Shown here in pieces: positions 18,293 through 46,500 of a stretch of DNA of 64,000 bases. How positions within the stretch are numbered: position 1 is the first letter of the stretch; the number at the start of each line of letters is the position of its first letter. The notes beneath the pieces are model-generated. The model saw only the letters and a program-made list of their open reading frames with translations, was not told the DNA's origin and did not search any database. The stretch covers positions 32,001 to 96,000 of the forward strand of contig CAWGYA010000008.1 in NCBI GenBank assembly GCA_963826715.1, written 5' to 3'. This stretch comes from Candidatus Bathyarchaeota archaeon. GTDB lineage: Archaea > Thermoproteota > Bathyarchaeia > Bathyarchaeales > Bathycorpusculaceae. The translations under genes were made by a program, and so were the position numbers.

Positions 18293-21200
18293 ATGAGAAA
18301 CAAAAACAAACATTTCAAAATCATCGGAAGCTCAATATTATTATTTCTGCTCATAGCTCTTCTAACGACGACACTATCGCCCAATATAACAACAGCACAA
18401 GTCTGGGATGAGCCCGTACCAAACTATTTCGGACCATATCCTAACTTTGCAACAAGCCAACTTCCCACAGTCACAAGAGACCCGACAACCGGAGAAGTCC
18501 TCTCAGCCGATGGAGGAATACGAAAATTCATTGACTCTCTGCCACTTCTCGGACCAGAAGGCACCAACAACTTAAACCAATATCTACCTGTCGCAATTTC
18601 TGACACAACAACCTATCCAGGCTGCGATTACTATGAAATAGCTCTAGTAGAATTCACCCAAAAAATGCACACAGACATAGCTCCAACCACACTTCGGGGA
18701 TATGTTCAGCTTGAAACGTCCGCAAACTATGAACAAAGTCAACATTATCCTCTATCGTATCCTGACGGATCACCGATTCTGAAGGCCGATAACACCCAAG
18801 CAATCTGTGTTGACCAACCACGCTATTTGGGTCCGTTTATAGTGGCCCAAAAAGACATGCCTGTACGCATCAAATTCACTAACTTCCTACCAACTGGCGA
18901 AGCGGGCGACCTATTCCTACCAGTCGACACAACTGTTATGGGATCAGGCATGGGATCCATCCCAATGCAGAACCCAGACGGCAGCCCGATGCGCAATCCC
19001 GATGGAATGATCATGTATGAGTCATACACCGAAAACCGTGCTACTCTTCACCTTCACGGCGGCAATACCCCCTGGATTAGCGACGGAACGCCACACCAAT
19101 GGATAACTCCTTCTGGAGAAGACACTGTATACCCGAAAGGCGTCAGCGTACAATATGTGCCTGACATGTGGTTTGTCGACGGAGAAGTAATTCCAAACAC
19201 CATAGGACAAACAACGCCGCCAGTTGCAGGAGCATCCAACAATCCAGGCGGCGATTCAATGACTTTCTACTACACAAACCAACAAAGCGCCAGACTACTC
19301 TTCTACCATGACCATGCATACGGCATTACCCGCCTAAACGTCTATGCAGGAGAAGCCGCAGGCTACATCATCCGAGACCAAGTTGAGCAGGCACTAATCA
19401 GCCAAGGCCTAATTCCACAAGATGAAATCCCACTTGTCCTACAAGACAAAACATTCGTCCCAGACACAACCACACCAATCACAAACATGTGGGGAACCTT
19501 CGATTCACAAATTGCCTTCCAAGACCCAACATGGAATACTCTACGTTGGGGCGATACGGGCAGTCTCTGGTACCCACACGTCTACATGACTATGCAGAAC
19601 CCAGGCGACACATCAGGAATGAACACATTCGGACGATGGCATTATGCACCATGGTTCTGGCCACCCTACACGCCGGAACATCCACCAGTTGCTAACCCCT
19701 ATATGGGACAAGTGCACCATGGCATAACTGAACCAGCACTAATACCAGGAGTACCAAACGTATCTGCTCCAGGTGAAGCATTCCTAGACACACCGGTGAT
19801 AAACGGAGTTGCCTACCCATACCTCGATGTGAAACCCCAAGCTTACAGATTCCGCATCCTAAACGCCGCTGATGACAGAGGATGGAACCTACAATTTTAC
19901 GTTGCCGACAGCACAGTAACTACCATAGACGGAAGAAACAACACAGAAGTCAGAATGGTCCCAGCAGTCCCAACCCCAGGATTTCCAGACACTTGGCCAA
20001 CCGACGGAAGAGACGGCGGAGTACCAGATCCCACAACCGCAGGTCCAGCATTTATACAGATAGGAAACGAAGCAGGCTTACTACCCACACCAGCAGTCCT
20101 TGAAAACAAACCGGTTAACTGGAACTGGGACATGGGAACCTTTGACTTTGGAAACATTAATCAAAACACATTAGCCCTAGCAGCAGCCGAACGTGCAGAC
20201 GTTATCGTTGACTTCTCACAATTCGCAGGTCAAACCCTAATTCTATACAATGACAACCCTGCACCAAACCCAGCGCCAGACCCACGACTTGACTACTACA
20301 CTGACAATCCAGATCAAACAGACAGCGGCGGAGCACCTTCAACCATCGCTGGTTACGGTCCAAACACAAGAACCATAATGCAAATCCGTGTTGCAGACAC
20401 AACACCTGCCACCGAATATAATACAACTACCCTTAACAACGCATTTGCATCAACATCCACAACTGAAGGTGCATACGCAGCAGCACAGCGAGCCCCCATT
20501 GTACCTCAAGCAGCGTACACTTCAGCATTCAACCAGACATTCTCAGACGTCTACGGCACAATATATGATAACTCACTAATCTTCACACCGATAAATGCAA
20601 CCGATCCGGTAACTATGTCATTTCAAGCAAAATCAATCCATGATGAAATGGGTGGAACCTACGACGTCGAATACGGAAGAATGCAGGTCCAACTTGGTGT
20701 TGAGCAAACAAAATCAACCCCACTAACTCAGACAACCATTCTATACGGCTTTGCTGATCCTTCAACAGAGATTATAGTTCCAGGCATAGAAGCGGCACCA
20801 ATTGGCTCACTAAGTGACGGTACTCAAATCTGGCGAATCACACACAACGGAGTAGATCAGCATCCAATGCACTGGCACATGTACGATGTCCAACTCATTA
20901 ACAGAGTTGCTTGGGACAACAACATAAGACCTCCAGATCCCAATGAGTTAGGATGGAAAGATACCATCAGAGTCAACCCACTACAGGACACATACATCGC
21001 TCTAAGACCTATCGTTCCAGACCTGCCCTTCGACTTACCCAATAGCGTTCGCCTCTTAGACCCAACAATGCCAGAAGGAGAGGTCCTAAAAACAACAGGA
21101 TTCATCATGGACCCAACCGGACAAGCAATAACCCTAACCAACCACGTAGTTAACTTCGGATGGGAATATGTCTGGCACTGCCACATACTTGCACATGAAG

Positions 21201-22405
21201 AAATGGATGCAATGCGAGCAGTCTCAGTAGCAGTTCCACCAGTAGCACCAACCAACCTCATCATAACACCCACAGAAAGTGGAATTTCACTAACTTGGAC
21301 AGACAACTCACTTGGAGAAACAGGCTTTACGATTCAACGCTCTGAAGACAGCCAATTCACAACAGGCTTAACAAGTTTCACTGTCGCACAGAACTCTAGT
21401 AACTATATCGATAACTCCACAGTGACAGATACAACCTATTACTATCGGGTAATAGCCAACAACCTAGTCGGAGACACATTTGACTATACAATCACCAACC
21501 CAAACGCAAAAGGTTTCCAAACCGTAATGGTTAACTCAACAGCTTCTAACACAGCATCAACAGATCAATTATACAATATTATTAGAGGTCCAAACGATGA
21601 AATCCTCTACAGCACCTACAACTTTGACACCGCCCAATGGAGCGACCTAATGGCTCTACCAAGTGGGGCAACAATTGACACCCCAACTGCAACAACAATA
21701 GGTGGACAACTATACATAGCTGTACGTGGAACCGATGGAAGCAGCATATGGTTTTCCAGCGTCAACATAGCAGACAACTCATTCTCCGGCTGGACAAACA
21801 TCCCCGGCGGAACACCTTCAGCGCCAACACTAACAACAAACGGACAAACACTCACACTAGTAGTACGAGGCTTCAACAACCTAATCTACTATAAGACATA
21901 TGATCCTATGACAACAACTTGGAGTAACTGGAGCAGTGTTGCCAATGCAGCTACAAGCGACAAAATAGCAGCCGCAATGATCAACGACACAATGCACCTT
22001 ATTGTAAAAGGCATGACGCCCAATGCAAACTTACTCTGGTACGCATCTGTTAACATCTCAAGCAACACAGTGTCGACATGGACCTTAGTTCAAGGAACAT
22101 CGCCATCTGCAGCATCACTCACGGCAGATCAAGCAACAAATCGACTCTTCCTTGTTGCTAGAGGTGAAAGTAATGCCATTTGGGTAAATCAAAGGGTCTC
22201 TTCAACTTGGCAAGGTTGGACTCTTGTGCCATCAGGCGAAACTAACCTTAGCCCAACAGCGGCATTAGTAAATAACCAACTACACATTGCGGTTCTAGGA
22301 ATAAACAACCTCTGGCACAACTCTATGAATACAACAACAGATACCTTCTCTGGTTGGACAGCAATGAGTGGTTCAACAACATCAACTCCAACCCTAACAG
22401 CGTAA
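18293..22405 (+). CDS. large secreted multicopper oxidase with fibronectin type III domain and C-terminal beta-propeller
   Basis: All four Cu motifs are present: HLHG, FYHDH, HPMHWH, WHCHILAHEEMDAM. Signal peptide; FN3 (PVAPTNL...LTWTDNS..ETGFTIQRS...YYYRVIA); Trp-rich C-terminal repeats. Confidence 0.93.
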   Translation: MRNKNKHFKIIGSSILLFLLIALLTTTLSPNITTAQVWDEPVPNYFGPYPNFATSQLPTVTRDPTTGEVLSADGGIRKFIDSLPLLGPEGTNNLNQYLPVAISDTTTYPGCDYYEIALVEFTQKMHTDIAPTTLRGYVQLETSANYEQSQHYPLSYPDGSPILKADNTQAICVDQPRYLGPFIVAQKDMPVRIKFTNFLPTGEAGDLFLPVDTTVMGSGMGSIPMQNPDGSPMRNPDGMIMYESYTENRATLHLHGGNTPWISDGTPHQWITPSGEDTVYPKGVSVQYVPDMWFVDGEVIPNTIGQTTPPVAGASNNPGGDSMTFYYTNQQSARLLFYHDHAYGITRLNVYAGEAAGYIIRDQVEQALISQGLIPQDEIPLVLQDKTFVPDTTTPITNMWGTFDSQIAFQDPTWNTLRWGDTGSLWYPHVYMTMQNPGDTSGMNTFGRWHYAPWFWPPYTPEHPPVANPYMGQVHHGITEPALIPGVPNVSAPGEAFLDTPVINGVAYPYLDVKPQAYRFRILNAADDRGWNLQFYVADSTVTTIDGRNNTEVRMVPAVPTPGFPDTWPTDGRDGGVPDPTTAGPAFIQIGNEAGLLPTPAVLENKPVNWNWDMGTFDFGNINQNTLALAAAERADVIVDFSQFAGQTLILYNDNPAPNPAPDPRLDYYTDNPDQTDSGGAPSTIAGYGPNTRTIMQIRVADTTPATEYNTTTLNNAFASTSTTEGAYAAAQRAPIVPQAAYTSAFNQTFSDVYGTIYDNSLIFTPINATDPVTMSFQAKSIHDEMGGTYDVEYGRMQVQLGVEQTKSTPLTQTTILYGFADPSTEIIVPGIEAAPIGSLSDGTQIWRITHNGVDQHPMHWHMYDVQLINRVAWDNNIRPPDPNELGWKDTIRVNPLQDTYIALRPIVPDLPFDLPNSVRLLDPTMPEGEVLKTTGFIMDPTGQAITLTNHVVNFGWEYVWHCHILAHEEMDAMRAVSVAVPPVAPTNLIITPTESGISLTWTDNSLGETGFTIQRSEDSQFTTGLTSFTVAQNSSNYIDNSTVTDTTYYYRVIANNLVGDTFDYTITNPNAKGFQTVMVNSTASNTASTDQLYNIIRGPNDEILYSTYNFDTAQWSDLMALPSGATIDTPTATTIGGQLYIAVRGTDGSSIWFSSVNIADNSFSGWTNIPGGTPSAPTLTTNGQTLTLVVRGFNNLIYYKTYDPMTTTWSNWSSVANAATSDKIAAAMINDTMHLIVKGMTPNANLLWYASVNISSNTVSTWTLVQGTSPSAASLTADQATNRLFLVARGESNAIWVNQRVSSTWQGWTLVPSGETNLSPTAALVNNQLHIAVLGINNLWHNSMNTTTDTFSGWTAMSGSTTSTPTLTA

Positions 22406-22420
22406 ACAAACAACACCATT

Positions 22421-22436
22421 CTCTTTTTTTTATTTT
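22421..22436 (+). terminator. oligo-T archaeal terminator
   Basis: T-rich tract (CTCTTTTTTTTATTTT) just after the oxidase stop. Confidence 0.5.
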
Positions 22437-23585: not shown

Positions 23586-24107
23586 TTGGTAATATCTTTG
23601 AAAAGTAAGATGCTAATTTTGGTTACAGCAGTTTTATTGACGACTATTTTACTCTCATCTTACAGTGCATTCGCTGCAGCAGCACATCAACCACAAAAAC
23701 ACTATGATAGCTTCACATTAACGGCAAGTGGCCGAGCACACAATGAGCAAGGTAAAATAGTTAATGTAGAACTTACAATTGAAGGAAAAACAAACGGAAT
23801 AATAAGAACGGTATTCCACGTAAAAACACAAGGCGGAGACGCAACTGTAACTGGTTATCAAACGATATCTGCAACCAAAGGTTACGGCATAATTATTAAT
23901 AAAAACCACTTTGCACAGTTCTACATATTGATGAGCGCACAGTATTACGGAGGAAGCAGCACTTTGTGGATGCTTAAAGGACACACAGGAACTCTAAGAG
24001 ATGATACACTCCCAGTATCCTTAGAATCTAGAAGAGTTGTCCTTCCAATAGACGGTTATCCAAGATTAACACATTTAAAATTGCGGGGCACAATAACCTT
24101 CAGCTAA
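23586..24107 (+). CDS. small secreted basic beta-rich protein of unknown function
   Basis: Signal peptide ending AFA-AAA, beta-strand pattern, no anchor. Confidence 0.7.
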   Translation: MVISLKSKMLILVTAVLLTTILLSSYSAFAAAAHQPQKHYDSFTLTASGRAHNEQGKIVNVELTIEGKTNGIIRTVFHVKTQGGDATVTGYQTISATKGYGIIINKNHFAQFYILMSAQYYGGSSTLWMLKGHTGTLRDDTLPVSLESRRVVLPIDGYPRLTHLKLRGTITFS

Positions 24108-24166
24108 AACACATCAACCTCGATTTTTTATTAATCTTCTCAAACCCTGATTTTGCCAATTGTGGA

Positions 24167-26078
24167 TCATAATAGATGTAGAGGCGCTCCTTCAACTGAA
24201 CGCAAAGAATAATTTAGCATAATTAAGAAAATTAACAACAAGCCAACCACCTTACAGGCCAAATATACCTTGTTATTTTTGAGAATATATTTTTTCTCAA
24301 CAACTTCGAAGACCCAAAATATCCCCAAAACAGCCAAAATCTGCACAGGAATTACATACAGTAGGCGATAAAGCAGGTAGTCCTCCGAAACAAAAAATAA
24401 AGCTAAGGAAGGAACAGCAACCCAAAGCAACATCAATCTATTGAATTTGCTAGCAAACAAAATAATCGCAAACATTCCCATGATAGCCAGAAGTATAAGC
24501 AATGAATTTGCGTAAACTCCACCAACCCACATCTCGACTATAGTTTTCAAACCTTCAGGTAAATTCATTATATTAGGTAAAGCAAGATTTCTTCCAGCAA
24601 ATGAAACACCGCTAGTCACCGATTTTCCAAAAGGCAATATTGAATAGAGTCCATATGCTGCAAAGTTTAAAATTAAGACAAAAAACAATTGAAAAATATG
24701 TTTATATCCGTTGTTCCCGGGAGTCTTAAGTATTGTTAATAATTCCCAGAGTAAGTAAGCAAACAATACACCTATGATAACATCCCAAGTGTAGGGATGC
24801 GTGAAGAGCAAAGCCACCCCAAAAAATGCAGCGGTTATTACATAAGCCCATGAATTGTTTTTACTGCTTTTTAAAATCAACCCGAAAAAAATAAAAGCCC
24901 AAGTTAGAGCTAACCAATTGGAAACACTGTAAGCGTAGATTCCAACTGTTGTCTGAAAACCAAGAACCGTGAAGAGAGCTGAAGCTAACGCCAAGACATC
25001 ATTATTTAGACCTACTCTTACAAACCAAAAGACAGCTAAACTTAGAGTTACACAACAAATAACTGGCATAACCTTGACAATGGTATCAGAAGATAACGCA
25101 AAAGAATGCTGAATAAAAAACATTAACAGGTTAGATAATGGTCTATCTGTCTGTAAAGCAATCCATGGACCTTTCTCACTCATGTCTTCCATCCAAATAT
25201 AGTAAATAGCAGAGTCAGAACCTACAAGTGAAAATCCTGAAGTAGTAAGCAAAGGATAACAAGAAACAAAAACGCCAATTCCAAAAATAACGAGCAGACA
25301 GAGAATTAATGTTTTGGTGTTTAATCGAACAAAACTAAAATTAATAGATAATTGCTCCCAATTGAAAGTGGTTTTTAATGCTTTTACATTATTAATTACT
25401 TTCTTGGTTAATGGGATCCAAAGCCAGCTTAAGAGTAGAGCAATAAACAAGCAAGGAACCAATGGATAAAAGACATTGAAAAAATGCAAATCAATCAAAG
25501 CATATCTCCAATGTGAAATATCAACAAAGGGAAAACTATAATCAAATATGTTCCAAAACCAAGTAGCCAGCAGAAGCAAAACTAAAAACTAAAAAGACAG
25601 ACACCAGACCCAACAATAAAAAGAAAAAAGCATTTTCCCTTCTCATAGCGGTGTTAAATCCTAAATATCCCCATAGCCCAATTATAATAATTCCAAGAGG
25701 GAAACCAACCAACAAAACGAAACTAGCATCGAATAATGAAAATAAAAATACTGCTAAACCAGCAAAGCAACAGTAATTAAACCATGAAGGTAGATGCTTA
25801 TTTCTTAAATTAGAAAATAATGCTAAAAGCAAAATGAAAAGAAACGATAAGGCCCAAATTAACCAATCAAGTGAACTTCCGAAGATGGAGATATTAACTA
25901 TTTTGGGTGAATAAAAGTAATAAAATTTTATCGAAAAGACATTGGCGAATTTAATAAACCCGAAGAAGAGATAGATCACTGAAAGAGCGATTATAATGAT
26001 GGATTTTATCGATAGATCATGAAGATCCTGACCAATTTTTTTTACAGAATTATCTTGCCTTTTAAGAGAAGAGGGCAT
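24167..26078 (-). CDS. GT-C-like polytopic membrane protein with one frameshift (about 25575)
   Basis: ORFs 25542..26078 and 24167..25579 overlap at a T-rich site. LVGSDSAIYYIW, TDRPL, THPYTW and YRLLY motifs are paralogous to 15975-17911. Confidence 0.7.
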
Positions 26079-26122
26079 TTTTTAGCCAAGACCATTTTTT
26101 TTGCGTTATCAGCACTCATCAC

Positions 26123-26749
26123 TTATTCCTGTATAAAAACAGTAGTTTTAAGACCTTCATCGGGCATGAAATCATACACACTATATATTACCTGACCATT
26201 TTCAAACCTATCATACGTTGAATAAATACTCCATTCAACTTTTGTTGCAGCACCCAATTCATCTAAATTGGTCGTTATCGTAAATTTGTTGCCATCTACA
26301 ATAAATTGACCTATGTCAGTAGCATTCGTTTCAACATTTTGGACTAAACAAAACAACCCAGTGGAATTGACGTCAACAATAAAATCATAGGTTTGCAAGA
26401 CATCATCTTCATTTTCAAGAACCGTTATGACATCAAATTGTGCTGCTTCTTGACTACCAAGCGTCTTTATAGGATCTTTAACGTGCACAGTGATCTCTAA
26501 AGTGCTCTGATTTTTTTCCAAAGATGCGCTCACTAGGTCAACTATTCCTTTGGAATTGGAAAATGCAGATTCATCCAAGTTACTTGGCAAAGGAACATTA
26601 ACTTGAAGGTCGTTCTCAGCTTCTTTAATTGCTGAATTAGACTCCGGAAAATAACTATTCAAAACTAGCACGCCAACAGCAACAATAAGCACTACCAACA
26701 AAATTACTATTACCAGTTTAAATCTTCCAACCTTAAAAAACAATGACAT
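26123..26749 (-). CDS. N-terminally membrane-anchored acidic beta-sandwich protein
   Basis: Basic residues then a hydrophobic N-terminal helix; acidic beta-rich body ending YDFMPD. Confidence 0.7.
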   Translation of the reverse strand: MSLFFKVGRFKLVIVILLVVLIVAVGVLVLNSYFPESNSAIKEAENDLQVNVPLPSNLDESAFSNSKGIVDLVSASLEKNQSTLEITVHVKDPIKTLGSQEAAQFDVITVLENEDDVLQTYDFIVDVNSTGLFCLVQNVETNATDIGQFIVDGNKFTITTNLDELGAATKVEWSIYSTYDRFENGQVIYSVYDFMPDEGLKTTVFIQE

Positions 26750-30153: not shown

Positions 30154-30430
30154 TCTAACATGTTCTCCTCTCAACGCCTTATGTTGAGTATTCACATATA
30201 AGAGTTAGTGAAAAAAAGATTTAAGATGCAAACACAATGTAAACATCTATGAAACATTAGTTTTCATATAATGTAGAAAATGAGCTTAATTGTGGCATCA
30301 TGTTTTTTCTCGACACTCTAAGTTGCTCTGAGCACACCATTGCTTTTTCACAAATCCCATAGGCGTAAATATGCTCTTAATCGAGGGAAGTTCGGGAATA
30401 TTCAAGTTCTCATTGATCTCAATACTACAA

Positions 30431-31299: not shown

Positions 31300-32253
31300 T
31301 TGGAATATGAATCAAACATACCTTTGCCAGTTAATAGCCTATCTGAGCTTTTAACTATCGTCGGAATTCCAGCTTATAATGCGGAAAAGACAATCGCACG
31401 GATTATCATTGAGGCACAAAAATATTGCCAAATCGTTGTGGTTTGCGATGATGGGTCAACTGATTATACAAAAGATATCGCAGAACATTTAGGGGCTCAT
31501 GTTATCGTGCATAAAAGAAATTTAGGATACGGGGCGGCCTTGCACAGTTTGTTTAATCAGGCAATAAAACTAAACGCTGATATTTTAGTAACCATAGATG
31601 CTGATGGACAACATAATCCATCCGAAATTCCGAGATTAATCGATAAAATGAAATTAGATCAAGGAGATGTCATTTTGGGTAGTCGATTTATTGAAAAAAA
31701 CGGTACATCTGAAATGCCTGCTTATAGGCAATTTGGGATAAAATTAATCACTTTGCTAAATAATAGATCTACAAAAAATGGTGTAACAGATGCACAAAGT
31801 GGATTTAGAGCATACAACAAAAACGCCATAAATCATCTTATTGATATATCAGAAAATGGCATGAGTGCAAGTATAGAACTTCTTCAGCTATCAAAAAAAC
31901 ACAATCTGAAAATCTCGGAAGTTGCAATAACATGCAAATATAGCAGCAGTACAAAAGAGGAAACATCATCTAAACATCCGATCTTTCACGGATTAGGTCT
32001 CACTACAACAATCATCAAACTTATCGTCGAGGACAAACCCATACGAATGTTGGGGATTCCCGGAATCATTTCAATAGCATTAGGAACTTTTTTTGGAGTG
32101 TGGATGATGAATTTATATGCAATTGAACATAGAATAGTAACGAATGTTGCTTTGGCATCAATTGCGTTCATATTGATAGGATTCTTCTTAATTTCAACGA
32201 GTCTAACATTATTTGCAATTAATAGACTCTCAATCAAATCCACACGTCAATAA
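31300..32253 (+). CDS. GT2 glycosyltransferase, polyprenol-phosphate (DPM synthase-like) type with two C-terminal TMs
   Basis: IPAYNAE, VCDDGSTD, NLGYGAAL, TIDADGQH, GSRF, DAQSGFRAY. Confidence 0.92.
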   Translation: MEYESNIPLPVNSLSELLTIVGIPAYNAEKTIARIIIEAQKYCQIVVVCDDGSTDYTKDIAEHLGAHVIVHKRNLGYGAALHSLFNQAIKLNADILVTIDADGQHNPSEIPRLIDKMKLDQGDVILGSRFIEKNGTSEMPAYRQFGIKLITLLNNRSTKNGVTDAQSGFRAYNKNAINHLIDISENGMSASIELLQLSKKHNLKISEVAITCKYSSSTKEETSSKHPIFHGLGLTTTIIKLIVEDKPIRMLGIPGIISIALGTFFGVWMMNLYAIEHRIVTNVALASIAFILIGFFLISTSLTLFAINRLSIKSTRQ

Positions 32254-32338
32254 AGAAATTATTTATTCGATATGATTTTTAAGAATCATCTTTTTTAATT
32301 GCAAACTCAAAGAATACATCGAAAGCAAATAACAATAG

Positions 32339-33505
32339 GTGAAAAACTTGAAAGTTCTGGCAATAGTATCAGCAATCGACCTAGAAGAAGCGCCAAGGGG
32401 AACCATATTCTGGTGGCAACTGTTTAAAAATATGTCAGAACTCGGCGTAGAAGTTATTGTGGTATCATTCTTGGGCAAATCAATAGTAACTCCATGGTGG
32501 GAATGTTATCCAAATCCGGCGTACTATACAGCTAAATTAGCATATGGTACAGTCAAAAACTCACAAAAAAACTATACTATCAAATCAATTAAATCATTCG
32601 CCGAAAAAATAAAGATAGATATTGCTATCGGACGCATAATAAGCGAACAATGGGAAAAAACCATCTCAGAAATTGCAGTTAAGGAAAAAAATATTGATGC
32701 CGTACTCTTGCTAAGTTTACCCATCAAACCACTTGAACCACTTATAAGGCAAATAAAAAAGAAAATTGGAAAAAAAATAGTATACATAGAAGCTGACATG
32801 CCTGAGGTACTTCCTGAATATAACATGTTTGGATATAGCTACTATGCTAATACAGATCTCTCAATTTTTGACGGCTACCTTTCAAATTCAGAGGGAGTCT
32901 CACAAACTGTAAAAAAAATGGGCGCATCCAACGTCGGCACTTTGCACTTTGCTATTGATCCTGAAATCTACAAAATATATCCAGAGGAGAAAATTATAGA
33001 TATTATTTTCTCAGGTGTTGGCACAGGTGGTCGTAGAGAACTAATAAATAAAATGATTATAAAGCCAGCTATCGATAGTTCACTTAAATTCGGGGTTTCA
33101 GGTATCTGGAAAATTGCGTTACCCGAGAATGTGACTCAATTGGGTTTTGTTCCCTTTGCAAGATGGCTTAGAGTGATATGCTCAAGCTATATCGCCTTAG
33201 ATGTAGTTAGGCACGGTCATGCTGCTGTTCGCGAAACATCAACTTACAGATTATTTGAATTATGTGGCCTAGGTCTACCGGTAGTAACCAACAAACGTGA
33301 CGGTATAGAAAGATTTTATCAACCAGGCAAAGAAATCATAATGTTAAATGATAACGATAATCCACTCCAGGTTTATCAAAAATTACTTGAAGATAAAGAG
33401 AAGTTAATTAAGATAAGTCGTCTTGCCAGAGAGCGAACATTAAAAGAACACACGTGCAGACATAGAGCGCTTGAGCTAATTGAGTATTTGAGAAGAATTA
33501 AATGA
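32339..33505 (+). CDS. CgeB-like GT-B glycosyltransferase
   Basis: LHFAIDP, IALDVVR...STYRLFELCGLGLPVVTN...ERFYQPGKEI...ARERTLKEHTCRHRA, typical of the CgeB/Glyco_trans_1_2 C-terminus. Confidence 0.8.
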   Translation: MKNLKVLAIVSAIDLEEAPRGTIFWWQLFKNMSELGVEVIVVSFLGKSIVTPWWECYPNPAYYTAKLAYGTVKNSQKNYTIKSIKSFAEKIKIDIAIGRIISEQWEKTISEIAVKEKNIDAVLLLSLPIKPLEPLIRQIKKKIGKKIVYIEADMPEVLPEYNMFGYSYYANTDLSIFDGYLSNSEGVSQTVKKMGASNVGTLHFAIDPEIYKIYPEEKIIDIIFSGVGTGGRRELINKMIIKPAIDSSLKFGVSGIWKIALPENVTQLGFVPFARWLRVICSSYIALDVVRHGHAAVRETSTYRLFELCGLGLPVVTNKRDGIERFYQPGKEIIMLNDNDNPLQVYQKLLEDKEKLIKISRLARERTLKEHTCRHRALELIEYLRRIK

Positions 33506-34716
33506 AAATAACTCAGATTTCAACAAGATATTGGCCATACGCAGCAGGACTCGAAGAATTCTTATATTCACTTTCAAAAGAACTATCGGCAAATGGAAAC
33601 GATATTAACGTGTTAACAACAAATTCGAGTGGAGAATTTTCTATCCCTCAAATCCGATTAGGCAGATTACCGCTTAACAGAATAACAAGTCCTTTCCCTT
33701 CTGGAACCACACGAATTAATGATAACTTCAAAATTCAACGTCTAAAAGCATATGTCAGATTCGGGCCGTTTCACCTTACTAATGTTATGAAGTTAACTAA
33801 ACAAAAAAGCGACATAGTTCACGTCCATGCACTAACAGATTTTCTCTTTTGGTTACCTGCTATAGGCAGACTTTCAGATTCAAAATTCATTATAACAATT
33901 CATGACGTTGCCCCAACAGTTGCCACTGATCTTGAGGCTTTATTTTGGAAGCCTTACTCGCAATTCTTCGTTCCAAAATTAATAAAAAGATTCCAGCAAA
34001 TAATAGTTCCCTCCTTGACCCAAATAGAATATCTAGAAAATGTAGGTATTAACCGGAAACAAATTTCGCTGATTCCCCTTTGTTTTGATCCAAAAATAGA
34101 AAGTATCGCCAATGATAATGAAAATAGCATTAAATCAATCCGAGCAAGATACGGAGTAGCCCCACAAGAATTCTTGATCATTTCTATAGGACGTTTAATA
34201 GCTACTAAACGTTATGATTTAGTTATCTATGCACTAAACCAAATTTTCCAGGAAAAGCCGCTTGAGCAAATAAAATACATTATAGTGGGTTCAGACGAAG
34301 GGGAACTGGCTACACTAAAAAAGTTAAGTCAGCGTCTAAAGTTGACAAAAAAAATAATTTTCACCGGAATAAAAAGCCACATAGAAACTTTGCAACTACT
34401 AAAATCAGCTGATTTATTTTTAATGCCCAGTGAGATTGAAGCTTTCAATCTTGCCACTGTAGAGGCAATGCGACTGTCTATACCGGTTTTAATAAGCAGT
34501 GGTGTCGGAGTCCGCTATTTAATAAGACAGGATAAGAATGGGATTATATTCAAGAAAAATGATATAGCTGACTTGACTATAAAACTTTTAAAAATAATAG
34601 ATGACCCTTCTAAATATCAAAGAATGGGCATAGAAGGCAAAAAAACTGCTGAAAACGTTTGTTCACCAAAAGTTGTAGCTGAAAAACACAATGAACTATA
34701 CAGGAAGTCCCTTTGA
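33502..34716 (+). CDS. GT4 glycosyltransferase
   Basis: YWPYAAGLE, DIVHVH, SIGRL...KRYD, FLMPSEIEAFNLATVEAM (EX7E). Confidence 0.92.
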   Translation: MKITQISTRYWPYAAGLEEFLYSLSKELSANGNDINVLTTNSSGEFSIPQIRLGRLPLNRITSPFPSGTTRINDNFKIQRLKAYVRFGPFHLTNVMKLTKQKSDIVHVHALTDFLFWLPAIGRLSDSKFIITIHDVAPTVATDLEALFWKPYSQFFVPKLIKRFQQIIVPSLTQIEYLENVGINRKQISLIPLCFDPKIESIANDNENSIKSIRARYGVAPQEFLIISIGRLIATKRYDLVIYALNQIFQEKPLEQIKYIIVGSDEGELATLKKLSQRLKLTKKIIFTGIKSHIETLQLLKSADLFLMPSEIEAFNLATVEAMRLSIPVLISSGVGVRYLIRQDKNGIIFKKNDIADLTIKLLKIIDDPSKYQRMGIEGKKTAENVCSPKVVAEKHNELYRKSL

Positions 34717-36867: not shown

Positions 36868-37535
36868 TTAACCGACTAAAGTTGGCTTAGATGGTGTATA
36901 GCCCCCGAGTATACTCTAGTCGCATAGTTCCGGGTTTGCCTGGTTTTGGATCCCATGCCACGTGATGCCGTCACCGCCTATAACAATTAAATGCAGTTGA
37001 TCACCTATCATGGTTGCTGCAGGTGTTTTAATTGTTGAGCCAGAAAATGCGCTCCAATCATGCCACAAGTTGTTGTAATAATTATTTGTATAAATGCTTC
37101 CGACTGTACTTTTTACTACTATAGTTAGAAAATTAGTTGTCTGTGATCTCGTTAAGGTAGCTGAAGAATTTGATGTTCCTGGCAGGCAACTCCAAATAGA
37201 AACAGTCACAGTTACCATATCAACAGTGGAATACCACAAAGTATTATTTACATACGAGTCTGTTGGATTATAGCCTCGAACCACTATTGTAATTTGTTTC
37301 CAATTTGATAGACTGCAGGAGTGTCACATGTAACACCACTTGACAAAACACCCCAATCACTCCACAATCGTAATTGGGGACTATAGGTTCTATAGTAAAT
37401 CGAATTATCTAATCCACTAACCACGAGCGTTAAAGAGGTACCATTAGACGTTAAAGCTCAAGCTGAAGAAGTAGCACCGCTCAAAATGCTCCAACCAGAG
37501 AAAAGCAATTGGACAAACTCATGTATCCATGCCCT
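36868..37535 (-). pseudogene. decayed copy of the C-terminal beta-propeller of the giant protein at 41264-46500
   Basis: HGYMSL../FSGWSILSGATSSA*ALTSNGTSLTLVVSGLDNSIYYRTY...TCDTPA.../VVRGYNPTDSYVNNTLWYSTV...GITWHGI...D*SILGGYTPSKPTLVG*. Two nonsense codons, frameshifts, no 5' part. Confidence 0.88.
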
Positions 37536-39412: not shown

Positions 39413-40105
39413 TTATTTGATACAAATAAAAAGAAAGTGTCGAGAAAACGTAGGAGTCAACCAGTTAGGTACATTAAAACTTACATTGAAGATGCTAAAC
39501 CAACTTTTATTGATAATAGATTCAAAACCTGTTGCCTTTAGGATATGTTTTAATGAATTATTATTATATAACCTAATATGCTGACCCTTTTTGGTTACAT
39601 CAAGTTCGGGGGTTGGAAAAGTCCCACCCAAATAACGTAACCGCATATAGAGGTTAAAAGGATTATGAGTTGAAATAACGAGTTTTCCACCATGCTTTAA
39701 AACTCTAAAAATTTCATGCAGTGCATTGTCAGGAAACGCTAAATGTTCAATAACTTCAGTAAAAATCACGTAATCAAAGAAGTTATTGCAGTATGGAAAT
39801 TTCTGGAATGAGATATCGCTTTGCTTTGCTTCGATGCCTTGAGTATTCAAATATGTTACGCATTTCGGTGATAGATCAAGTGCATGTAAATTTAAACTTG
39901 ATGATTGTATACTTTTCAAAATGAAACCTGAACCTGAGCCCACATCCAATATTACTTTATCATTTAGTTCTTCTTCCAATAAGATTTTTATAACAAATTT
40001 TTGCCATAACCGAGGGTGGTTATTTGGTTGAAAGTCATTATAGACCTCATTGTCATAGAAGGATAACATATCGTTGGAATGACTTGCCGCAACATTTTTT
40101 TTCAA
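39413..40105 (-). CDS. class I SAM-dependent methyltransferase
   Basis: ILDVGSGSG, LDLS, FDYVIFTEVIEHL, LKHGGKLVISTHN, HIRLY. Confidence 0.9.
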   Translation of the reverse strand: MKKNVAASHSNDMLSFYDNEVYNDFQPNNHPRLWQKFVIKILLEEELNDKVILDVGSGSGFILKSIQSSSLNLHALDLSPKCVTYLNTQGIEAKQSDISFQKFPYCNNFFDYVIFTEVIEHLAFPDNALHEIFRVLKHGGKLVISTHNPFNLYMRLRYLGGTFPTPELDVTKKGQHIRLYNNNSLKHILKATGFESIINKSWFSIFNVSFNVPNWLTPTFSRHFLFICIK

Positions 40106-40121: not shown

Positions 40122-41060
40122 TTATTTACAATTTATATTTAATGCGTTTAGATAATCCTTTATTCCTGTCTCCAAAGGACGGGGATTTACGGATAGAGTT
40201 TTTGATAATAAAGAGGTATCTGCCATAGTCCATTCTAGATATTTTGAAGGTTTTGGTATATAATATGGTTTAATATCCTTTTTTAGATAATTATTGATTA
40301 AACTAACCACTTCATTAAACGTGTAGCTCTTTCCAGAGCCTACATTCAATATTTCAGGTAAATCATCTATTTCACAGCATTTTATGATTACGTCAATTAC
40401 GTCATCTATGTAAACAAAGTCCCTGGCTTGACTGCCATTACCATATAGTATTGGTTGTTCATCTCTTATAATGGAACTTAGAAAGAGTGTAATTGGACTA
40501 GAAATTTGTTTCTTATGTGATTCACCTTGGCCGTATCCCGCGAAAATTCTAAGACCAACATTATTGACTTCTTCAGAATAGAGTTTAGCTATTTTCTCGC
40601 ATGAGAGTTTGCCCACAGCATAAAGATTACCTGGATGAGGTTCAACTTGTTCAGAAGAAAGACCTTTGTTTTTTCCGTACACACTTCCAGATGATGGATA
40701 TATCACTTTTTTTATGTTTTTTTTGGTTGCGATATTAAGTACATTTATGAAACCTGCTGTTGTTGAAGAAAAAGCTTCCAAAGGTGATTCATTAAATTGA
40801 ATAACTGAGGATGGCCCAGCAAAATGGAAAAGATAATCAAAATTACCAGTTAACTCTCTTATTAAATTCTTTTCACAAATATTGGATTTGATGATTTTAA
40901 TATTATCCTCGAACTTAGATAAATTCGTTTTAGGTGAAATATTAAAGTTATCAATAACAGTAATGTCAGCACCTTCACTTGAAAGTTTAGTTACAATGTT
41001 TTGTCCTATGAAGCCTGCGCCGCCAGTTACAATTACTCGCTTTTTTTTCCAGTTCATCAT
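40122..41060 (-). CDS. NAD-dependent nucleotide-sugar epimerase/dehydratase
   Basis: TGGAGFIG, SSGSVYG, YAVGK (YxxxK), RDFVYIDD. Confidence 0.92.
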   Translation of the reverse strand: MMNWKKKRVIVTGGAGFIGQNIVTKLSSEGADITVIDNFNISPKTNLSKFEDNIKIIKSNICEKNLIRELTGNFDYLFHFAGPSSVIQFNESPLEAFSSTTAGFINVLNIATKKNIKKVIYPSSGSVYGKNKGLSSEQVEPHPGNLYAVGKLSCEKIAKLYSEEVNNVGLRIFAGYGQGESHKKQISSPITLFLSSIIRDEQPILYGNGSQARDFVYIDDVIDVIIKCCEIDDLPEILNVGSGKSYTFNEVVSLINNYLKKDIKPYYIPKPSKYLEWTMADTSLLSKTLSVNPRPLETGIKDYLNALNINCK

Positions 41061-41263: not shown

Positions 41264-44200
41264 CTAACTTGTTAGGGTGGGTATTGATGGTGTTGCACCA
41301 TCAAGCAAGCTCCAGCCTGAGAAGCTATCAGTGGTCTGGTCTAAAATTCCATGCCACATGGTAACCTCATCACCGCCAACAACAACAATGTGAAGTTGAT
41401 CATCCACGGTCGTAGCTGCAGGAGTCTTTGCAGTTGAACCAGAGAAAGCCTCCCATCCTTGCCAACCCAGACTAGTATGTGTATTAAAGTAGATTCCACC
41501 ACTCATTCCTTTTACAAGCATTGTTACATCATCGCTCGTTTGGGAACATGTCAAGACTGCAGGAGCATCAGTCGTACCCGAAAGCATTTCCCAAGTAGAA
41601 GCACTGTTTGTATCAAGATTTACAGTACTGTACCAAAGAGTGCTGTTGATATAACTGTCAGTCGAGCTGTAGCCTCTAACCACCACATGAAGCATGTTAC
41701 CATTCTGAGTTGCCGCTGGAGTATCACAGGTTGCAGCATCTGCAATAACCTCCCAACTGCCCCATACTCGAGTTTCCGGATCATAGGTTCGATAGTATAT
41801 ACTGTTGTCTAATCCTTGAACTACAAGAGTCCCGGTCGTACCGTCAGATGTTAGAATTGGCGCCGAAATTGTTGTTCCACTAAGCACACTCCAGTCTGAA
41901 AAGACACTAGTTGATAGGTCAAGATAACCATGCCACAAGGTATAGCCATCTCCACCCTTAACAACTAAGTGAAGCTCATTGCCTATCACTGCAGCAGCAG
42001 GAGAATCAATAGTTTGACCTGGTAATGAAACCCAATCATTCCATGACTCAGAGATCGAATTATACGTCTTCACATAAATGCCATTATCTGATCCACGAAC
42101 AACAAGATAAGCATTCTCAGCCGCTATAGGAATGTCAACGACGTTTACTGTCCATTCTTGGTAGTCAGTCAACAAGCCATCGGATACTGTTACTCTGATT
42201 GTGTATGGGCCTGGTGCAGCTGTAGAGTCTGGTGTGTATGTCCAGTTGGCTGTTGTTGCTTGCTCTATTGTGTCTATTGTCCATGAGTAGCTGAGTGTGT
42301 CGCCATTGGGGTCTGAGGATATTTGGTTGAAGTCTATGCTTGAGCCTTCGTCAACACTTACTGGGTCTGCGGTTGGGGAGTACCAGTCGATTTTTGGAGC
42401 GATGTTCTCAAAGTTTGCGATAACATGTAGTGTGCTTGAGGTCATTGGTGTTCCATCTTCCCATGAGTCTATTGGGATAACTGTTACTGCGAAGTCATCT
42501 CCTATACTGGTTTCTTGGCTTACGATAGTGTTGCTTGCGCTTGAGCCGTCTTTGGTTTCGATGTAGCGTTGGAAGATTTGTTCAGCTGATAGTGCTCGCG
42601 GGTAGATGCGAACTTCGTCCATTTGACCGCCAAAGCCGTTACCAAGGTTTAGTAAGCCGTTTGAACTGGAGTCTATTGGGTCAGTGAACGGTGTGGTTGC
42701 CTGTATGGTTCCGTCTATGTAGAGGTTGAGTGCTACGCCGTCGTAGGTGATTACTACATGGTGCCATTCGCCCACGTTCTCGTAGTCGCTGAAATCAACG
42801 ATTGTACTTAAGCCGCCACTGTAAGCGTAGAAGCGGAAGCGATCGTTATTGGAGTTGTCGTAGACTCTGAGACGGTAGCTACTGGAGCCTTCAGTGCTTT
42901 GCATCATTATCGGATAACCGTTGCCATCGACTTTAATCCAAGATTCCACTGATAGCTGAGTCAAGCTACCTGTGCCGCTTAGACTGTTACTGACTTCCTG
43001 AACTGTAATTGCGCTGCCACTGGGGAAGCTATAAGCTCCGCCGACAACGCCGTCAGGAATCCACATTGCACCTACATTTAGTCCATCGTTACCAATGCTG
43101 GAATAGTCAAGCACAGTTCCGTTGTGATCGATGTATAGTGGGACTTCAGTGTCAAAAGGCATCACTAAGTTGGCGTATGGGTTGCCATTGACTGTCCAAG
43201 TATACACGTTGGTTACGTCGTCGCCGTTAGCATCATCTGTGTTCTGTGCTGTTGCGATTAGGTCTTCGCCGTCTTGGTTGCCGCCAGCGCTAGAGACTAA
43301 GCTTGGCACGTCAGTTGTTGGAGCAGTGTTTGCATAGATAGTGATTGGATCCGAAGTCACCATTGTGCCAAAATCTTCACCGTCGCTTGGTATTGCAGTG
43401 AAATACCATTCTTGGCCTGTAACAGTTGCTGAAGATGGAACCTGCAAAGCATCGTTGTAACTTTCCTGCAAAACATCATCCATATACCAGCGAATTTCAC
43501 TTCCAGATTCTGGGTTACCGTCTGCGTCATAGTAGGTGTAGACTGCATCTAGGTTTTGGCTCTGTAGACGTTGGTCGCCAACACGTAACGGGTAAATCTC
43601 AGGGTCTGAGGCAACTGGAGGTGTATTAATTATTTCAAAGCTTGTAGTAGTGCTCGTTGTTCCTTCATCGTATGAGTCTGTTGGAATTACGTCGCAAGCT
43701 AAGTCATCGCCTGAGCTGGCGAGTCCAAATGGCATGTATTTTGAGCTGCTGGTGTCGCCTGTAGCTGAGTTATCATACTCATTTTCTACTTGTTCTGCTG
43801 GAAGTGCATAGTTGAAGATTCTTACATCATCAATCATGCCAGCAAAAGGTTGTACGAGACGACCAATGTAAACTGGTTCACCCCGGCTTGGAGAAAGAGG
43901 TCCGCCGGAACTAGATGATTGTGCAACTTGAGCCCCATTTACATAAAGCCTCATGCCCACACCATCTTCATAAGTGAAAACGATGTGATACCAGGTTTCA
44001 AGTTCAAAGTTCACGTTTGCTGTTATGGCGCGCATGCGATCGACGGAGGCTTGGTTATCGTCATCGGCAACTTCTCCGGTGTATGGCCAAACTGCACCAT
44101 ATAAGCGATTGGCTGAGGAGCTTTCACTCTGGAACCCAAGGGCATAACTTGGAATCTTACCAACGATTGTTGAGCCATTGGTGTATTCATCAAGGTAAAC

Positions 44201-46500
44201 CCAAGCTTCAACAGTTACGCTACTCCAATCGCCATAGCCACCTAACTCGCGGTGGTTGTCAACTGAGTTTTGGTCGTTAAAGAAGCCTGCTCCACCGTCA
44301 CTTAGCACGATAGCATCATCTTTACCATCAAAATGATAAGCACCGCCAACAATTCCGTTCGGAACCCAAGCTGCACCGATTACTTCGCCATCGTTGCCAA
44401 ATCCGGAGTAATCCTTTGTTGAAGTTTCACTGCGAGTGTCGAAAGGCAATAGAACTTGATTCACAGAATCGCCGTTTACAGTCCATCTATAGATATTAGT
44501 GACGTCATTTCCGTTGATATCATCTGTTCCTTGAGCAGTAGTTGTAAAGTTAGATGTAACATATCCCATACCATCATCAGGAACCAAAATAGGTTGGTCT
44601 TGAGTTGGCGCACTGTTGCCAATTGGTGTTTCAAGTTCAGTGCGGAAAGTAAACATTGAGGACGTTGTTTCCGTGCCATCGTCTGCAGTGACAGTCCAGT
44701 AGTAGGTTGTGTCATAAGCTAATCCACTCACCGGAAGGGCAAGCTCATTCCATATAGAAGTTCCACTTGCAAGTGGAACATCGCTTACTGATCCAATGTT
44801 AGGTGAAGTCATCACTGAATAGGTCAAAGGATCACCCTGCTCATCCCTCAACTTGAAGCTTAAATCAGTAGTTGACACTGGGATTGCAAGTTTGTTATCA
44901 CCTGGATACATCGGCGCCACAAGAGGAGCAGTCCAATAGTCTTCGTCACCAGGCATTACCGTATGCCGAGCAACACCATGGCGGTCTTCACCATAGTAGG
45001 TAACTTCAGAACGCAGACGCTCAGTTTTTGTCAATCCATCCGCAACATTTCCTGTCCAACCAGGTGCGGGAGCTAAGGTATCAAAAGCATATACAGCACC
45101 TGAGGAAGCATCGACCAAGAGCTCAAGCAAACCATCACCATCAATATCTTGGGCAACTGGAAAACCAAGCTGAGTGCTCAAATGTCCACTGCCATATGTT
45201 CCAGGTGTATTTCCAGGGACACGGGTAACGTTCTGAATACTCTCGTAATCACTGTTCCATATGAAAATTGCGCCATACCAAAAGTTTTCATTGGCATTAT
45301 CGACAGATGTTCCGTTGGGGCACGATATTATTTCAGGACCTGGATTAGTCGGATCAATATCAGCAACTAGTGGACCCCATTTCCAGTCTCCATCAGCAAG
45401 AGAAAGTTGCGCATCCATCTGACCCGTCACTAAGTCGAAAACGTCAGTGTACGCTTGGTCGTCGTGATCACCGTCGTCACACAACAGCTCTAAATGTCCA
45501 TCTTGATCAATGTCGTAAGCAGTTGTTCCGTAGTGAACAGACAAATTGTTATTCCTCCAGTGATAGATTACTTCGCCATTTGTAGAATTAAGGACCCACA
45601 TGTTGTTGTACATGCCTGTGATAATATCTTGTATTCCGTCACCGTTAACATCTGCAAGAATTGGGGCCTGACTGCTGGTTAAATCATCAAGACGAATCCA
45701 GCGTTCAGTCAAGTTTGCAGCCCAATAAGATTTCACACCCTTGCCGTACCCACCATCGCTATAATCCATATCTCTATCACCTTGGTAGAGCTCAAATTCG
45801 CCATCGTTGTCGGTATCACCTAATGCGAGTCCACCAGAACAGGCACGCCAAGTAAAAGTTGTAGCCAAAATATTACCTTGATAATCTATTCTAACTATAG
45901 TACCATCATAACCACCTAATGGTGAAACATCCTGAGAAGCAAGGAAAATATCTAAGTGACCATCCCCATCAATGTCTCCAGCCACAGGTTTTGCCATGAC
46001 ACTACCGGACCCCACAGAACCACCAGGAGCCTGATCAGCCTGAGAATAAACTACCCACATCTCAGAAAGAGTTGAATCACCATCATATTGAACTGCAGCT
46101 AAACCAGGTTCATAATACAAAACAATAAAATATCAAGAACACCATCTCCATCAACATCATACAATTGTGGTTGACTGTAGGTTCCAATACGAGAGTTGTG
46201 ATATGTCGCAATCGTGGCCCCAGTGGTTCCATCAAATACATAGATGGTATCACCGCCAGTGCCACCACCTCCACACCAAACAACGTCTTCTTGACCGTCA
46301 CCTGTGACGTCACCCGCCACCATGCCACTCTCCCAATTGGTGCCTACACCGGTTCTCGTCCATTTAGGAGTCAAAACAGTTGTAGGACCAGCAGCCGATG
46401 CTTGAGGAATAATCAAAGCTAATGGCGTAACTAACATGCTAATTAATAGTACACTAATTAAAGTGAGATTAAACAAAGATTTACTAGATTTATGCAACAT
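41264..46500 (-). CDS. giant secreted acidic protein (about 1750 aa): FG-GAP/VCBS propeller, 2 LamG-like domains, Ig-like domains and C-terminal beta-propeller; frameshift about 46120
   Basis: ORF 46099..46518 (signal peptide, DVTGDG, DVDGDG) joins 41264..46120. About eight DxDxDG-type motifs; LamG motifs (TVEAWV...WYHIVFTY...LYVNG...IDDVRIFN; WHHVVITYDG...MDEVRIY); Trp-rich C-terminal repeats. Confidence 0.85.

Follow-up and report, generated by a model that had tools for sequence, protein, structure and literature searches.

Few uncultured archaea in sediments and soils are as abundant as the Bathyarchaeia, and much of the thinking on how buried organic matter is degraded centres on the peptidases and oxidases that they are predicted to secrete. 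How an archaeon without an outer membrane stops such exoenzymes from diffusing away is the question raised by a 64,000-nucleotide stretch of a Candidatus Bathyarchaeota genome (hereafter the window), in which a secreted multicopper oxidase and a giant adhesin-like protein end in the same Trp-rich repeat domain. A preliminary description of the window regarded this domain as a lectin-like propeller which tethers its cargo to the polysaccharide made by the locus, in the manner of the SLH domains of Firmicutes. We examined the domain, its relatives and its gene neighbourhoods, and we consider a PLL-type tail that tethers anchorless exoproteins to the envelope or capsule glycan of the producer itself to be the best available explanation, with a probability of roughly 0.45.

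Propeller-bearing genes and their surroundings

The features of the window used in this study are as follows.

18293..22405, plus strand: secreted multicopper oxidase of 1370 aa with a C-terminal propeller (translation; Pfam)
21569..22402, plus strand: six-bladed PLL-type propeller of the oxidase, residues 1093-1370 (BLASTP, profile searches, AF2 model)
31300..34716, plus strand: three glycosyltransferase genes (GT2, GT1-like, GT4/GT1) between the two propeller genes (Pfam)
36868..37505, minus strand: decayed propeller remnant, about blades 2-6, no front end (tblastn, profile, translation)
39413..40105, minus strand: class I SAM methyltransferase, 1.2 kb downstream of the giant's propeller (Pfam 5.3e-20)
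40122..41060, minus strand: NAD-dependent sugar epimerase/dehydratase, directly downstream of the giant (Pfam Epimerase 1.7e-44)
41264..46120, minus strand: body of the giant, FG-GAP / two LamG / PKD, adhesin-like, 1618 aa, with a C-terminal propeller (translation; Pfam)
41267..42112, minus strand: six-bladed PLL-type propeller of the giant (BLASTP and profile)
46099..46518, minus strand: 5' piece of the giant in a separate frame, with signal peptide and first FG-GAP repeat (Pfam FG-GAP_3 3e-11)
46851..48434, minus strand: Wzx/MurJ-type polysaccharide flippase, directly upstream of the giant (Pfam Polysacc_synt 2.2e-31)
52903..55557, minus strand: polysaccharide pyruvyl transferase and FrhB-like iron-sulfur protein, in the glycan island (PS_pyruv_trans 7.4e-28; FrhB_FdhB 6.9e-28)

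The oxidase begins in translation with a signal-like segment that contains no Cys, matches Cu-oxidase_2 (1.8e-9) and Cu-oxidase_3 (3.4e-4), and carries four motifs, HLHGG, YHDHAYG, HPMHWHMY and HCHILAHEEMDAM, that fit the copper motif patterns; an ortholog with 65% identity occurs in another genome of the same genus. The giant matches Laminin_G_3 (4.2e-46) as well as FG-GAP_3 and PKD, and two homologs of it were found in another genome of the genus. In the assembly the giant is split by a 1-base frameshift at about 46124-46130 and is not a single ORF. An extra base at the break (46124; 46129) gives one continuous frame in metagenome contigs of two other runs (X1 and X4), these being two short contigs of 98% and 93% identity at a depth of 2-2.6, and the break may thus be an assembly error or specific to the strain.

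Both tails consist of six repeats of about 46 aa with the form LxVVRGxDNxIYY...W(S/G)xW..L.G.T.S.PA, and BLASTP aligns them over a domain of about 280 aa with 115 of 283 residues identical (41%, E 5e-76), so that the common repeat domain proposed for the two proteins is confirmed. When a profile of the two tails was run against the 2.64-Mb genome, as the preliminary description had recommended for its copies, it matched at three places only, namely the oxidase, the giant and the remnant. The remnant, taken earlier for a pseudogene, is indeed one and lies on the minus strand: a tblastn search with a 298-aa tail (the domain of about 280 aa plus flank) finds it at 37505-36877, split over two frames, and matches query positions of about 86-296 with 51-62% identity to the tail of the giant, and its reading contains at least one frameshift, near 37290-37305, and two in-frame stops, a TGA and a TAG, the latter replacing the expected tryptophan of the blade-6 FSGW. 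It runs to its stop at 36868 with TPSKPTLVG, next to TTSTPTLTA in the oxidase and TPSIPTLTS in the giant, and hence the nearly shared C-terminus noticed before holds for all three copies.

Recent horizontal transfer of both giant genes was considered in view of their GC content (0.46 against 0.33-0.42 in the neighbours) and was rejected. Codon positions 1 and 2 account for the excess, which therefore reflects amino-acid composition, giving no evidence of foreign origin, while GC3 is 0.39-0.42 against 0.24-0.40 in the neighbours.

Fold, family and predicted pocket of the tail

Regarding the family of the domain, hmmsearch of PDB sequences with the two-tail profile retrieved PLL3 at E 2.9e-22, and a profile of 27 sequences retrieved PLL2 at 3.6e-44, PLL3 at 1e-37 and PHL at 7.9e-35, that is, lectins at about 1e-44 against 1e-5 for Kelch. 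The AF2 model of the oxidase propeller (pLDDT 96.6) has 24 strands in six four-stranded W-motif blades and can be aligned from end to end with six-bladed propellers, and its top Foldseek matches are PHL and PLL at E of about 1e-13. The PLL-like propeller suspected from the letters is therefore found by profile and by structure comparison alike. Precomputed Pfam annotation places PF26607.1 on 22 of 22 and 6 of 7 homologs, among them a protein 100% identical to the oxidase of the window; we take PF26607 to be the family named 'Beta-prop_PLL' and DUF346 to be PF03984, the latter matching one homolog at 2.4e-8. A Pfam set without PF26607, searched to E<=10, gave no family match on the tails, its rows there being a NANM/Kelch-like one at 0.0029, far under the cut-off, and two chance rows. 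No paper on a PF26607-type domain as an archaeal tail was found in a literature search that covered papers readable without subscription.

The tail is thus a variant of a known lectin family, a relative of the PLL/PHL lectins of Photorhabdus (PLL, PLL2-5, PHL; PDB 5c9o, 6rfz, 6t96, 5mxe), with which it shares sequence, the four-stranded W-motif blade and the aromatics of a hydrophobic pocket between blades. However, it has six blades, by sequence repeats and by the model, formed by a two-blade unit in triplicate, whereas the PLL lectins have seven; and it is the C-terminal tail of large secreted enzymes and adhesin-like proteins, whereas PLL is a free lectin. In the model the last strand (residues 275-277) completes blade 1, which explains why the domain is always at the extreme C-terminus and ends in ...PTLT[SAG]. 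A sialidase-like catalytic reading, which the preliminary description had kept in mind, was rejected, since no BNR/Asp-box match was found on the tails with Pfam and the homology is to lectins; by every comparison made, the domain is predicted to be non-catalytic.

In PLL lectins the "hydrophobic" pocket accommodates a methyl group, that of fucose or of an O-methyl sugar. We mapped the pocket positions of 58 full-length domains through the HMM alignment to PLL3 and published residue names. The 4H site of PLL3 is given as W251, W265 and S246 (PMC12203525), and two reports describe a strong avidity of PLL lectins for fucosylated and O-methylated sugars (PMC12203525, PMC6943638). Per blade, 81-100% of these domains have Trp at the W265 position and 88-98% have W, Y or F at the W251 position, often Tyr and not Trp; the polar-site position (W111/W254 of PLL3) is Trp in only 0-9% per blade and mostly Thr, Ser, Lys or Ile, so that the tail, unlike the PLL lectins, is without the polar-site tryptophan. 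The aromatic pair of the hydrophobic site is present in six of six blades in the giant and in five of six in the oxidase, whose blade 1 has Leu/Leu. By this alignment the hydrophobic-pocket aromatics are kept in nearly every blade and the polar site is lost, and it follows that the tail most likely binds glycans multivalently, with low affinity and without catalysis; as an epitope, a methylated or 6-deoxy sugar would suit the PLL family better than pyruvate.

Portability, cargo and distribution

With the tail profile, 3188 cluster representatives of public data were matched at E<=1e-3 and 329 at E<=1e-30. Among 169 homologs the domain lies at the extreme C-terminus (at most 10 aa from the end) in 159, a TM-like tail was found in none when the last 60 aa were examined, and 89 of the 125 homologs beginning with Met have a hydrophobic, signal-like start. 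The stand-alone domain is rare (14 of 169), and 12 of those 14 resemble gene fragments. Cargo in the 169 homologs includes NosD/beta-helix (15), LamG (11), multicopper oxidase (7) and GH5 (3) proteins, peptidases of the families C25 (5), S8 (4), C11 (2) and C1 (1), BD-FAE/S9-type esterases (2), polysaccharide deacetylases (2), one polysaccharide lyase-like domain and CBM96; adhesin-type modules are LamG, FG-GAP and Ig-like, and a recognisable carbohydrate-active domain occurs in a minority only. In a subset of 55 front ends viewed one protein at a time, 20 are without a Pfam match. Swapping of the module is seen in one genome, where tails of 413 aa that are 93% identical occur in two genes with different front ends. 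These comparisons support a portable, lectin-like C-terminal module on diverse archaeal secreted proteins, and the earlier expectations of unrelated front ends and of no C-terminal membrane anchor, with neither stand-alone nor membrane-anchored forms prevailing, agree with the counts.

The propeller is present in 7 of 61 genomes of the genus, 0 of 16 from the other families of the order, 7 of 301 genomes of the class and 5 of 401 of the phylum. The distribution is patchy and accessory, which excludes a general envelope system. A pattern-based search of genome contigs for related loci matched 40 stretches, with 0 confirmed. In a search for mcrA, the gene was not found and the positive control was detected. 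Placement in the phylum follows the NCBI names carried by proteins of a genome in the same genus. This genome also has an archaeosortase-like gene, so other routes of anchoring exist.

Glycan genes and the surface to which the tail may bind

Glycosyltransferase and methyltransferase genes occur near propeller genes more often than expected from the background, the loci counted being few and related. A GT1/GT2 match lies within 10 kb of 7 of 10 propeller genes in five other genomes, against a background of 9-18% of those genomes, and a Methyltransf_23 gene lies within 10 kb of 7 of 11, against a background of at most 5-12%. In all four genus genomes examined the top-scoring Methyltransf_23 gene adjoins a propeller gene; the methyltransferase at 39413..40105 is the best such match of the genome of the window. 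Two genomes have, downstream of propeller genes that differ in cargo, an orthologous GT1-GT1-unknown-methyltransferase cassette (49-67% identity). The oxidase ortholog in genome G205 has this cassette, whereas the oxidase of the window is without it. The 988-aa protein of the cassette has no Pfam match at E<=0.01, and none was found in this genome with that protein as query. Propellers beside orthologous cassettes are 43% alike against 38-48% for other pairs, and no single glycan gene set travels with the propeller.

The most specific proposal so far was that of an archaeal counterpart to SLH/CsaB anchoring, with the propeller binding a pyruvylated polysaccharide made by this locus. The likeness in idea is clear: SLH domains on the CsaB-pyruvylated secondary cell wall polymer of Firmicutes are a shared non-covalent glycan-binding module which holds many exoproteins, and, as for the propeller, glycan synthesis genes are found close by. 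Here the giant shares its glycan island with the pyruvyl transferase (52903-54240) and its FrhB-like partner, which lie 11 kb away, and the nearest relative has kept both an 80%-identical pyruvyl transferase and a propeller remnant. But the two do not go together at a wider scale. In the co-occurrence analysis that had been suggested for them, covering 61 related and partly incomplete genus genomes, the propeller is found in 7 and a pyruvyl-transferase homolog (E<=1e-10) in 14, with 4 genomes having both, 3 the propeller only, 10 the homolog only and 44 neither; close orthologs of the transferase occur in 4 genomes, 3 of which have no propeller and the other a remnant. What is more, the fold and sequence of the tail are unrelated to SLH, no SLH family is among the Pfam matches of the oxidase and the giant (E<=0.01), and the conserved pocket is the hydrophobic and methyl-accepting one and not an anion site, the likely epitope being a methyl or deoxy sugar. 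We therefore regard the pyruvylation link as highly improbable. Of the tethering claim of the preliminary description, the portable lectin tail stands (159 of 169 C-terminal) and the link with pyruvylation (overlap in 4 genomes) does not.

Targeting in the manner of carbohydrate-binding modules (CBMs), with the propeller binding plant, fungal or bacterial debris, including polymers that contain fucose, rhamnose or O-methyl sugars, and so concentrating exoenzymes on detrital particles, seems to us somewhat unlikely. Like CBMs, the tail is a separate non-catalytic domain with predicted sugar binding that is attached to exoenzymes, including a few GH5 proteins, esterases and deacetylases; the polymer-acting cargo listed above, with the beta-helix/NosD proteins, may be read in this way, and a patchy, accessory distribution is consistent with niche-specific substrate use. 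The PLL lectins characterised so far recognise foreign glycans (PMC12203525, PMC6943638), and PMC6752024 discusses the exported C25 peptidases of Bathyarchaeota-rich sediments as enzymes free in the extracellular space. The identifiable cargo is, however, mostly not carbohydrate-active, being oxidases, four peptidase families and LamG/FG-GAP/Ig-like adhesin modules, and such targeting predicts neither the enrichment of glycan and methyltransferase genes nor a conserved downstream cassette. Up to six predicted pockets would also make the tail multivalent, in contrast to CBMs, and, since its last strand closes the ring, it has to stand at the end of the protein; it is unusual for CBMs to be confined strictly to the end, although ring closure accounts for this under either reading. 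The gene enrichment itself could equally reflect glycosylation of the secreted proteins, or a clustering of surface genes. A very unlikely explanation along this line is that the propeller is a protein-protein or oligomerisation module, an exoprotein scaffold or a binder of S-layer protein, with the nearby glycan genes serving only to glycosylate the secreted proteins; the homology of the tail is to lectins and not to Kelch, and conservation across blades falls on the aromatics of the sugar pocket.

For tethering to the producer's own glycan, the scenario would run as follows. The propeller, fused behind Sec-secreted proteins which lack a membrane anchor, would most likely hold its cargo non-covalently on a repetitive glycan surface; this surface would be the envelope or capsule glycan of the producer, a product of the variable glycan islands that house the propeller genes, and oxidase, adhesin-like proteins and peptidases would be kept at the cell. 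Against this role count the patchy distribution, the changing glycan gene sets, the cassette-adjacent propellers that are no closer to each other than other pairs, the archaeosortase-like gene and the other readings of the gene enrichment given above, as well as the facts that in this genome one of three copies is dead and another frameshifted in the assembly, and that blade 1 of the oxidase propeller is without both pocket aromatics. A narrower version, which we hold to be unlikely in its full form, would have the six-bladed tail display oxidases, adhesins and C25/C11 peptidases on an O-methylated (or 6-deoxy) envelope glycan from the neighbouring glycosyltransferase/methyltransferase cassette, as an accessory island of some Bathyarchaeia and other archaea. 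If true, such lectin-based display would be a functional parallel to SLH-SCWP anchoring with an unrelated fold and epitope.

The ligand of the tail decides whether these exoenzymes are bound to the cell or to particles, and a single domain of 280 aa thus carries the question. In addition, the tail shows that six blades with three-fold symmetry occur naturally in a lectin family whose other known members are all seven-bladed free proteins, which makes it relevant to lectin engineering.

The shared C-terminal propeller

Two unrelated secreted proteins of the window end in the same tryptophan-rich domain, and a third copy of it is present as a pseudogene:

18293-22405 (+), multicopper oxidase ORF of 1370 aa with six C-terminal repeats of ~46 residues, whose translation stops at ...TTSTPTLTA
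41264-46120 (-), giant FG-GAP/LamG ORF of 1618 aa with six C-terminal repeats of ~46 residues, whose translation stops at ...TPSIPTLTS
36868-37505 (-), third tail copy, partial and in two frames, aligning with residues ~86-296 of the query tail (298 aa)

In the oxidase (residues 1093-1370) and the giant (residues ~1337-1618) the tails share 41% of 283 aligned residues (E 5e-76) and have like endings, which bears out the proposal of the preliminary description that one propeller is shared by unrelated secreted proteins. The pseudogene recognized there is confirmed as well: the minus-strand copy is read in two frames, carries a TAG at the expected blade-6 tryptophan and still has ...TPSKPTLVG preceding the stop. 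A profile built from the two intact tails matched these three places only in the 2.64-Mb, 96%-complete genome.

The tail family is already catalogued. The tails gave no match in our local Pfam copy, from which the PF26607 model is absent; in the precomputed annotation of database homologs, PF26607 is assigned to 22 of 22 longer matches and 6 of 7 near-length matches. Among PDB sequences, the two-sequence profile finds the Photorhabdus lectins PLL3, PLL and PHL at E 3e-22 to 3e-17 (PHL is covered in PMC5584973). A 27-sequence profile yields 3.6e-44 for PLL2 and 7.9e-35 for PHL, and with it Kelch-type propellers get no further than about 1e-5. The AlphaFold2 model computed from the 27-sequence alignment (pLDDT 96.6) has 24 strands forming six four-stranded blades, and its final strand, residues 275-277 with the PTLT motif, completes blade 1; this explains both the position of the tail at the very protein end and the like endings of unrelated proteins. 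The PTLT ending closes the ring and is not a signal for sorting. Moreover, many homologs match the profile in three stretches of about 120 positions and two blade types alternate in the tail consensus, thus the ring consists of three copies of a two-blade unit.

Carriers, cargo and distribution

The oxidase matches Pfam Cu-oxidase_2 at 1.8e-9 and begins with a signal-like segment without a lipobox cysteine; the four copper motifs are readable in its translation. According to Pfam the giant combines FG-GAP repeats with a PKD domain and two LamG domains. A one-base frameshift near 46124-46130 cuts off its signal peptide and first FG-GAP repeat, which this assembly has in another frame at 46099-46518 (-). 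Short contigs from two soil-metagenome runs, one of 151 nt with 2 substitutions and one of 180 nt with 12, both of low depth (2-2.6), each carry one extra base at 46124 / 46129 which restores a single frame; either an assembly error or a difference between strains may account for the break. In another genome of the genus a homologous giant is likewise split into two ORFs, with the break elsewhere. Elsewhere in the window, the 1011-aa product of 27160-30195 (-) has a GH39-like domain and, in duplicate, a ~260-aa polysaccharide-lyase-like domain which also occurs between LamG and propeller in giants of another genus genome (30-35% identity).

Of 1.84 billion cluster representatives, the profile detected 3188 at E<=1e-3 and, with the stricter limit of E<=1e-30, 329. 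From these the best 150 were combined with earlier matches; once three entries belonging to the window itself and a 158-aa piece had been removed, 169 homologs remained. The domain lies within 10 residues of the C-terminus in 159 of them and no TM-like hydrophobic stretch occurs among the final 60 residues of any, in agreement with the expected strictly C-terminal module on diverse proteins without a TM anchor. Nor is the domain mostly stand-alone: it forms the whole protein in only 14 of 169, and 12 of these 14 lack a hydrophobic N-terminus and resemble fragments. A hydrophobic N-terminal segment is found in 89 of the 125 homologs starting with Met, the remaining ones being mostly truncated calls on short contigs.

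The front ends among the 169 homologs include NosD/beta-helix (15), InlB-type B repeats (14), LamG (11), CARDB (8), multicopper oxidases (7), peptidases C25 (5), S8 (4), C11 (2) and C1 (1), and GH5 (3); further ones are esterases, a purple-acid-phosphatase N-domain, and PQQ, NHL and Kelch propellers. No Pfam match was obtained for the front ends of 20 of the first 55 homologs. In one genus genome, L030:9600-13079 and L031:9467-10831, 20 kb apart, have unrelated fronts but C-terminal regions of 413 aa, propeller included, that are 93% identical, a comparison which points to a recent exchange of the module. On the whole, a non-catalytic, lectin-type module that is C-terminal and portable is well supported. 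We found no description of archaeal exoproteins with such a tail in the literature searched.

The distribution of the tail is patchy. With the window's genome included in every count and the samples being draws, the propeller occurs in 7 of 61 genus genomes (one of the 7 with remnants only), in 0 of 16 genomes from other families of the order, in 7 of 301 genomes of the class at E<=1e-10 and in 5 of 401 genomes of the phylum at E<=1e-15. The nearest relative (G002) has only propeller remnants with a stop at L040:6407-7009, at a locus partly syntenic with window 23586-26749 and 31300, and the tail seems to be decaying in that sublineage. For one genome of the genus, the protein names at NCBI are those of Candidatus Bathyarchaeota. 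A search for mcrA in the window's genome did not find it.

Glycan genes and the sugar pocket

The window is a glycan island with three glycosyltransferases; the giant is flanked directly by a flippase gene upstream and by epimerase and SAM methyltransferase genes downstream, and at a distance of 11 kb there is a pyruvyl transferase with an FrhB-like partner. Short ORFs, four in all, occupy the two edges of the island (6951-8644 and 56781-58082); each matches only part of the DUF1616 model, and they resemble membrane-protein genes that have been split or have decayed. Consecutive parts of one 536-aa GH5-like ORF of the nearest relative (L040:15008-16615) are matched at 81-83% identity by two overlapping ORFs at 59094-60456 (-), probably a frameshifted copy and a paralog of 48604-49806 (56%). 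At 9881-15214 (+) a MoxR-type AAA ATPase with DUF4350 and large neighbours resembles a MoxR-associated surface or chaperone cluster.

In five other genomes, a GT1/GT2 match lies within 10 kb of 7 of 10 propeller genes and within 5 kb of 5 of 10, against only 9-18% of each of those genomes being that close. With the window's three propeller genes included, a Methyltransf_23 gene lies within 10 kb of 7 of 11, against a background of at most 5-12%, all these counts being small. The top-scoring Methyltransf_23 gene adjoins a propeller gene in each of the 4 genus genomes examined. Two genus genomes further share an orthologous cassette (49-67% identity):

L030:3345-9493 and L035:5979-12074, four-gene cassette of GT1, GT1, a ~950-aa protein without Pfam match and a Methyltransf_23 methyltransferase, following immediately on propeller genes whose cargo differs

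The upstream cargo is an Ig-repeat protein in one genome and the oxidase ortholog in the other. Several observations speak against a tight coupling: the window's oxidase is without that GT1-GT1 cassette, a search of its genome with the cassette's large protein as query did not find it, and propellers beside such orthologous cassettes resemble each other no more than other pairs do.

According to PMC12203525 and PMC6943638, "hydrophobic" sites between the blades of PLL lectins hold the methyl group of fucose or O-methyl sugars by two tryptophans and a Ser/Thr (W251, W265 and S246 in PLL3 site 4H), and "polar" sites rely on a different tryptophan. We mapped these positions onto 58 full-length domains via an HMM alignment, that is, by sequence rather than superposed coordinates: in each blade, 81-100% of the sequences have Trp at the W265 position and 88-98% have an aromatic residue, mostly Tyr or Trp, at the W251 position, and Trp occupies the polar-site position in 0-9%. 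The hydrophobic-pocket aromatic pair is kept in 6 of 6 blades of the giant and 5 of 6 of the oxidase.

What the tail may bind

The tail is very probably a glycan-binding one. Because the family favours methyl-bearing sugars, the hydrophobic pocket is conserved and methyltransferases are neighbours, a methylated or 6-deoxy epitope is our best guess, as a lead and not a result. Our preferred reading, given a probability of about 0.45 as a whole statement, is that the tail tethers its cargo to the producer's own envelope glycan. Its main rival, that the tail targets environmental glycans, appears somewhat unlikely; as to the neighbourhoods, surface-protein genes may also adjoin glycosylation genes because their products are glycosylated.

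It is very improbable that the propeller binds a pyruvate-specific glycan of the locus, as in the archaeal analogue of SLH/CsaB anchoring first suggested from the nearby pyruvyl transferase. Among the 61 genus genomes, which are related and in part incomplete, 14 have a transferase homolog at E<=1e-10; these include 4 of the 7 propeller genomes, two of the 4 with only weak (~1e-11) matches, and 3 of the 7 have none. Close transferase orthologs (42-80% identity) exist in four genomes, with a propeller trace, a remnant, only in the nearest relative. The proposed pairing thus receives no support.

The window's genome has an archaeosortase/exosortase-like gene (E 1.4e-11) at C8:713742-714545, so a C-terminal sorting route probably exists in this archaeon too, and the propeller proteins cannot use it since they have no TM tail. 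Among the homologs the tail is present on C25 peptidases (five) and C11 peptidases (two); PMC6752024 discusses the exported C25 peptidases of Bathyarchaeota-rich sediments as extracellular enzymes.
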